Shown piece after piece: positions 21,827-22,050 of a DNA stretch of 32,000 nt. The stretch lies in assembly GCA_964514965.1 (NCBI GenBank), contig CAZETV010000002.1:156445-188444 (forward strand), given 5' to 3'. The DNA comes from Candidatus Hadarchaeota archaeon. Lineage in GTDB: Archaea; Hadarchaeota; Hadarchaeia; Hadarchaeales; Hadarchaeaceae. The stretch's first letter is position 1. Each line of letters starts with the position of its first letter. The notes below the pieces were generated by a model. The model was not told the origin of the DNA, made no database searches, and was given only the letters and a program-made list of their open reading frames with translations. Made by a program: the position numbers and the translations under genes.

Positions 21827-21954
21827 TGGTCCCGCGGGCCGGATTTTCAGCAGATTTGCCGCATTTGAACCGGCAACATGTCGGTTTCGGCTTGGGTCTT
21901 TGGCCCGCCTCTCGGCGAACAGCCGACCACTCTACCAAACTGAGTTACCGCGGG
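21827..21954 (-). tRNA. tRNA-Tyr (anticodon GUA), 128-nt gene with intervening sequences in the anticodon loop (31 nt) and the T-loop (20 nt); CCA encoded
   Basis: Removing 21886-21918 and 21844-21863 yields a 77-nt sequence: CCCGCGG-UA-ACUC-AGUUUGGUA-GAGU-G-GUCGG-CUGUAGA-CCGAC-AUGUU-GCCGG-UUCAAAU-CCGGC-CCGCGGG-A-CCA. It has the C1-G72 pair and A73 that are identity elements of archaeal tRNA-Tyr. It is nearly colinear with the M. jannaschii tRNA-Tyr sequence as I remember it. Confidence 0.85.
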
Positions 21955-22050
21955 GCCAAGTTAAAATTGGGATTTATGAACTCTTAAGGTTTCACCCAAG
22001 AAACTCGTGCAACCTGCGGATAGCACTCAACTTTTCCTTCCGATCAATCT

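Follow-up and report, generated by a model that had tools for sequence, protein, structure and literature searches.

A strict bulge-helix-bulge intron very probably interrupts the T-loop of the only tRNA-Tyr gene found in a Hadarchaeota genome with a single alpha-type splicing endonuclease

Up to three bulge-helix-bulge (BHB) introns per tRNA, at canonical as well as non-canonical positions, were reportedly described by Sugahara and colleagues in 2008 in the Thermoproteales (Pyrobaculum, Thermofilum, Caldivirga), and individual introns are said to be present or absent among relatives there, as they are at the locus described here. The Thermoproteales have an (alpha-beta)2 splicing endonuclease (EndA) that carries a Crenarchaea-specific loop, whereas the Hadarchaeota EndA reported below is without it. 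Introns at the T-loop position that concerns us, between nucleotides 59 and 60, are already known from pre-tRNA-Pro(GGG) and pre-tRNA-Cys(GCA) of ARMAN-2 (Ca. Micrarchaeum), the former with a strict hBHBh' motif beside a 53/54 intron and the latter with a relaxed hBH motif (Fujishima et al. 2011, PMC3239211). The tRNA-Pro intron resembles the present one in its strict motif, in belonging to a multi-intron tRNA, and in using the T-stem as its outer helix (PMC3239211), but it belongs to another phylum and to a tRNA of another identity, and the ARMAN-2 enzyme is a three-unit epsilon2 EndA with an ASL loop, where we find a single alpha-type subunit. Enzymes of the alpha4 and alpha'2 types need a strict 3-4-3 motif (PMC3239211), and both types are described as 'typically' restricted to the canonical position (PMC3239211, PMC3241643). 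The lineage studied here, as Hadesarchaea, is also known to combine an alpha4-type EndA with a marked increase in disrupted tRNA genes, in a study that found substrate range to be least influenced by EndA subunit type (Kaneta et al. 2018, PMC5829648). That account is a genome-level tally of one MAG (YNP_N21; Figure 7 of PMC5829648), with no individual intron, comparative analysis or assay. The T-loop intron reported here, with comparative validation, adds to the non-canonical archaeal tRNA introns, none of which had been individually described in this phylum.

The intron lies in a tRNA-Tyr(GUA) gene on the minus strand of a 32-kb stretch of DNA (the window, 32,000 nucleotides at its full length) from a Hadarchaeota archaeon, which is uncultured and whose genome is a MAG. 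The gene and its associated features are as follows.

21827-21954, minus strand: tRNA-Tyr(GUA) gene, 128 nt, with three introns, C1-G72, A73 and an encoded CCA
21900-21918, minus strand: intron 1, 19 nt, interrupting the anticodon at 35/36; precisely inserted when compared with orthologue L006, motif read from the sequence
21886-21897, minus strand: intron 2, 12 nt, at the canonical position 37/38; placed by comparison with the intron-less orthologue L026, motif read from the sequence
21844-21863, minus strand: 20-nt intron UGCGGCAAAUCUGCUGAAAA, between T-loop positions 59 and 60, read from 21863 to 21844
21981-21988, minus strand: A/T-rich box CTTAAGAG, 27-34 nt upstream of the tRNA 5' end

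From 21954 to 21827 the minus strand reads CCCGCGG UA ACUC AGUUUGGUA GAGU G GUCGG CUGU[19 nt]AG[12 nt]A CCGAC AUGUU GCCGG UUCAAA[20 nt]U CCGGC CCGCGGG A CCA. Excision of all three introns in silico leaves a flawless 77-nt cloverleaf that ARAGORN calls tRNA-Tyr(gta). With the 20 nt in the T-loop alone removed, ARAGORN calls a tRNA-Tyr with an anticodon-loop 'intron', and with the T-loop insert as the only one kept it reports 0 genes. The intact gene is missed in the window both by ARAGORN at default settings and by Rfam at its gathering threshold, with which three other tRNAs and a 5S rRNA are detected there; it is because of the T-loop intron that standard finders report no tRNA-Tyr in such Hadarchaeota genomes. 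A search of the 1.28-Mb, 94.5%-complete genome found neither a second tRNA-Tyr gene nor a separate 3' half. The box CTTAAGAG is likely an archaeal TATA-type promoter element, and a conserved YTTAA(G/T/A)A box is found at the same distance, about 30 nt upstream, in most of the orthologues whose flanks were compared; the gene is presumably transcribed.

The original prediction placed the intron by folding the T-arm by hand, and each element of that fold is present in the sequence and backed by homologous genes.

21870-21874, minus strand: T-stem 5' strand GCCGG (positions 49-53), outer helix h, paired with 21838-21842
21866-21869, minus strand: U54 U55 C56 A57, exon strand of the central 4-bp helix H, paired with UGAA at 21846-21849
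21863-21865, minus strand: 5' bulge A58 A59 and U, with the predicted cut after A59; from the sequence
21850-21862, minus strand: inner hairpin h', GCGG, CAAAU and CUGC with one G.U pair; in the RNAalifold register and with compensatory changes
21846-21849, minus strand: UGAA, intron strand of the central helix, H'; from the sequence and the orthologues
21843-21845, minus strand: 3' bulge A A and U60, with the predicted cut before U60; from the sequence
21838-21842, minus strand: T-stem 3' strand CCGGC (positions 61-65); from the sequence

The minus strand across 21838-21874 thus reads GCCGG UUCA AAU GCGG CAAAU CUGC UGAA AAU CCGGC, with two 3-nt bulges on opposite strands around the 4-bp helix UUCA/UGAA, a T-stem of 5 bp on one side and an inner helix of 4 bp on the other, and the motif is, as had been claimed, strict rather than relaxed. 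Its handedness is that of a canonical BHB, the 3-nt bulge lying 3' of the central-helix segment on each strand (5' h-H-B-h' ... h'-H'-B-h 3'). Cutting after the second base of each bulge and ligating in silico gives a tRNA-Tyr with the T-loop UUCAAAU. The central helix is not recovered when the same 37 nt are folded thermodynamically. The 37-mer has a folding z of -2.58 and direct evaluation of the BHB structure gives -12.1 kcal/mol, but the minimum free energy structure of the single sequence, at -13.1 kcal/mol, lies 1 kcal/mol lower with a shifted inner helix (CGGCA/UGCUG), in which UUCA is unpaired and the G of UGAA is sequestered.

Composition-preserving shuffles of the 20 nt reach a 4/4 central helix with a flush inner helix of at least 3 bp in 0.064% of 200,000 trials. 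Strict BHB-like motifs are frequent by chance on the genome scale, with 14,133 in the 1.28-Mb genome, or about 350 per 32-kb window (h of at least 3, H of 4, h' of at least 3, 16-100 nt), and, the motif alone being so common, it is its setting in a tRNA and the comparison with orthologues that make it significant. Given this background, and given that standard tRNA finders and Rfam miss the locus, it might be argued that the gene is dead or decaying and holds an unspliced insertion with a coincidental resemblance to a BHB. We consider this extremely unlikely, as the 94.5%-complete genome has no other tRNA-Tyr gene, every one of the gene's stems is perfect once spliced in silico, the promoter box, the CCA and the synteny with 5S rRNA are conserved, and the insert is itself conserved with compensatory changes in 8 genera. 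Moreover, when each of the 14,133 candidates was excised and passed to ARAGORN, just one, at 21844-21863, yielded a tRNA with a T-loop junction. The same strict-BHB-plus-ARAGORN pipeline found no other T-loop intron in the genome, a search of the genome for further copies of the 20-nt intron at up to 4 mismatches returned only noise, and a relaxed genome scan for 59/60-type inserts gave 923 hits, mostly spurious.

The main support is comparative. A BLAST search with the locus as query, run on 65 genomes from the same order, recovered 40 orthologous tRNA-Tyr genes. The site is occupied by an insert of 18-24 nt in 20 of the 40 and empty in the other 20, where the T-loop is exactly UUCAAAU; the product predicted for ligation is thus the sequence of every intron-less orthologue. 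Insert carriers span genera g1, g3, g5, g6, g7, g8, g11 and g12 of the window's family, and within the window's own genus the insert is present in 7 genes and absent from 4. A 5S rRNA gene follows downstream in many orthologues, as it does at this locus. All 20 inserts have hBHBh' geometry, and the central pairs are complete (4/4) in 17, where UUCA faces UGAA or one of the wobble-compatible variants UGGA and UGAG; the remaining three have GGAA, which produces an A57.G mismatch. Standard pairs occupy 99.1% of the pair cells of a 17-sequence alignment, compared with 37-56% when the 3' partners are slid, and none of 500 column shuffles reached the observed covariation score. The outer and inner helices are 100% paired over 17 distinct sequences, with double-sided changes in three and two pairs respectively. 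The T-stem covaries between GCCGG/CCGGC and GGGAG/CUCCC, and the compensatory changes in two of the four inner-helix pairs include pair 14:28, which is C-G in 10, U-A in 5 and G-C in 2 sequences. RNAalifold applied to the orthologues recovers the outer and inner helices in the register of the hand fold. It did not predict the A/U-rich central helix from these sequences; that helix cannot covary because its exon strand is the invariant T-loop.

The orthologues also decide the position of the junction, which this gene alone would not, as cuts at 58/59, 59/60 and 60/61 (UUCAA^A..GAAA^AU, UUCAAA^U..AAAA^U and UUCAAAU^G..AAAU^C, with ^ marking each cut) all ligate to UUCAAAU. A real intron whose cuts lie one base to either side of 59/60 is nonetheless very unlikely. 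The third base of the 5' bulge varies among orthologues (U, C, G or A), A58 and A59 being fixed, and U60 is constant in 40 of 40. With the 5' bulges AAC, AAG and AAA, a cut at 60/61 would give UUCAAAC, UUCAAAG and UUCAAAA, and with the 3' bulges ACU, AGU and AUU, a cut at 58/59 would give UUCAACU and similar products, against the UUCAAAU read in all 20 intron-less genes. Only 59/60 gives UUCAAAU in all 20 insert-bearing orthologues, and the BHB rule, by which cleavage follows the second bulge base, leads to the same position; the claim of a 59/60 intron with both cuts after the second bulge base is upheld on both counts.

Three unrelated-looking types of 59/60 intron occur in genus g1 (GCGG..CUGC, GUGGC..GCCAC, and GGGU..ACCC with GGAA), together with four genomes in which the site is empty. 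The GUGGC type recurs in other genera, without any difference in g3 genomes and almost unchanged in g6, g7 and g12. This distribution suggests either allele exchange or a very fast turnover of tRNA-Tyr alleles. The 20:20 ratio of presence to absence among close relatives and the three types within one genus offer material for the study of intron gain, precise loss and allele exchange.

Genes for a splicing endonuclease and for an RNA ligase are both present in the genome.

G000 C1:874866-875426: EndA gene, 186 aa, matching PF02778 and PF01974
6519-7826 of the window, minus strand (G000:C2:162963-164270): RtcB RNA ligase gene, matching PF01139 (E = 1.3e-179)

The RtcB gene is within the same 32-kb window as the three-intron tRNA, which is probably a coincidence. 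EndA matches both PF02778 (E = 3.5e-20) and PF01974 (E = 1.4e-33) and scores 113.9 bits on TIGR00324 against a cut-off of 59.6 bits. It has the form of an alpha4-type enzyme, about 180 aa in one subunit, which carries an N-terminal and a C-terminal EndA domain as well as a Tyr/His/Lys triad that aligns with those of M. jannaschii, APE and ARMAN-2. Its best single-domain match among solved structures is the M. jannaschii alpha4 enzyme (1A79; 124 bits, end-to-end alignment), and the single gene together with this match indicates that it presumably assembles as a homotetramer. Its identity to the Hadesarchaea DG-33 EndA is 93%, and every one of its nearest neighbours comes from a Hadarchaeota MAG. 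No second EndA, beta or alpha' paralogue was found in the 94.5%-complete genome with PF01974, NF007085 and NF007086 at E <= 10 or with phmmer --max. A strong EndA match is present in 37 of 40 relatives, and 36 of these have it at one locus only; in G004 two almost identical matches lie on different contigs. Weak PF01974 hits in ORFs of about 360 aa in four relatives were considered as a possible second EndA and rejected, as these are LigD-type Prim-Pol proteins.

The features of broad-specificity (alpha-beta)2 and epsilon2 enzymes, L1 (Lys44 in APE) and the ASL (L2), are not found in the N-terminal part of this EndA. The Crenarchaea-specific loop is absent, the 9-residue APE insertion VEKPRGADF being missing so that the sequence reads GKPLS-GGKLQL like that of M. 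jannaschii. The Tyr-His loop has the M. jannaschii length, with 9 residues between, and is 5 residues shorter than that of ARMAN-2; an L3 insertion was not confirmed in the alignment of this loop with M. jannaschii and ARMAN-2, whereas the Hadesarchaea enzyme has been called 'L3-harbouring' (Kaneta et al. 2018, PMC5829648). The motif G-E-K-P-G-E in the Tyr-His loop is shared with DPANN alpha-type EndAs, and the motif that follows the catalytic region is AHSVHKK, with an Arg to His change from the AHSVRKK of M. jannaschii and of close relatives.

A genome encoding only a homotetrameric EndA restricted to canonical sites had been named in advance as grounds for doubting that the T-loop intron is processed. 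Such a genome is what we find, with one alpha-type gene and no beta, but this does not refute splicing, because the motif is strict, which is the form that alpha4 and alpha'2 enzymes require, because this is the sole tRNA-Tyr gene in the genome, and because such introns occur alongside a single EndA throughout the order. It could be supposed instead that an alpha4-type EndA without a specificity loop is unable to act in the T-arm and that the insert is removed by another route, such as self-splicing, a guide RNA or an unrecognised second nuclease; reviews do limit alpha4 cleavage to introns at the canonical position (PMC3239211, PMC3241643), and neither a beta subunit nor a Crenarchaea-specific loop was found in the genome. 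A route of this kind is exceedingly improbable in our judgement. At 20 nt the insert is far below the size of a group I or group II ribozyme, the weak EndA-like hits otherwise seen in relatives are all LigD-type proteins, and what is conserved is exactly the motif that EndA recognises. Archaeal EndA, moreover, recognises the BHB without the mature domain, as seen with mini-helices and APE EndA (PMC3241643), subunit type contributes least to substrate range, and the alpha4 enzyme of Hadesarchaea coexists with many disrupted tRNAs (Kaneta et al. 2018, PMC5829648).

We therefore hold with high confidence that the 20 nt are an archaeal hBHBh' intron at 59/60 in the T-loop of the single Hadarchaeota tRNA-Tyr(GUA) gene, presumably spliced by EndA and RtcB. 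In the proposed mechanism, U54-A57 of the T-loop would pair in the precursor with UGAA near the 3' end of the intron, so that the two 3-nt bulges would lie between the T-stem on the lower side and a small hairpin of the intron on the upper. The single alpha-type EndA, presumably as a homotetramer, would then cut after the second base of each bulge, leaving a 2',3'-cyclic phosphate and a 5'-OH, and RtcB would ligate A59 to U60 to restore UUCAAAU. The spliced sequence expected across the junction is ...GCCGGUUCAAAUCCGGC... Since neither of the two anticodon-loop introns overlaps this BHB, it could be processed independently of them; of those two, the 35/36 intron is predicted to be removed before the one at 37/38.

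It is quite possible, and we propose it tentatively, that in Hadarchaeota a one-subunit EndA resembling that of M. jannaschii, with neither a Crenarchaea-specific loop nor a beta subunit, has to remove introns lying in the T-loop, within the anticodon (35/36) and at the further sites known from orthologues. It would also have to deal with relaxed forms, for example the 12-nt 37/38 intron, which lacks an inner helix, and the T-loop introns of the three orthologues whose central helix contains an A.G mismatch. If so, broad tolerance of position and motif would need no heteromeric or loop-bearing EndA, the basis of the 'EndA-intron co-evolution' model. A pre-tRNA-Tyr with a strict 59/60, a strict 35/36 and a relaxed 37/38 intron would provide a three-substrate test of the view that 'alpha4 means canonical position only'.

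The two introns of the anticodon loop are only two bases apart. That at 35/36 has a strict hBHBh' motif (H GGCU/GGCC, bulges GU^U and AA^A, h' CGCC/GGCG), and its outer helix GGUC/GACC borrows G37 along with three bases from the 5' end of the intron at 37/38. That second intron resembles a relaxed bulge-helix-loop, in which an inner helix is missing and only three of the four central pairs are present.

Across the order, tRNA-Tyr is interrupted at at least five different sites in differing combinations, and one gene, L026 (G040), is without any intron. An extra intron of about 22 nt follows position 9 (CCCGCGGUA^AGGCGCCC...CCCGUAA^ACUCAG) in L008 (G004), L005 (G018), L009 (G002) and L027 (G014), and is preceded upstream by a near-copy of the acceptor 5' strand (GGTCYCGCG). 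A variable-region intron of 17-32 nt (CCGAC AGGA...CCCGGGAN AUGUC) is found in L010, L015, L018, L019, L021, L120-L125 and L128.

A genome-wide tRNA census with ARAGORN -i was set aside as untrustworthy, as it contained many implausible calls (SeC, a 441-nt 'intron'). The strict-BHB excision pipeline, applied to both C1 and C2 of G000, returned further interrupted tRNAs that were not individually curated, among them a candidate tRNA-Phe(GAA) with a D-arm BHB intron and an anticodon-loop intron, a candidate tRNA-Leu(UAG) with an intron near position 7-8 and an anticodon-loop intron, and a candidate tRNA-Met with an intron near position 31.
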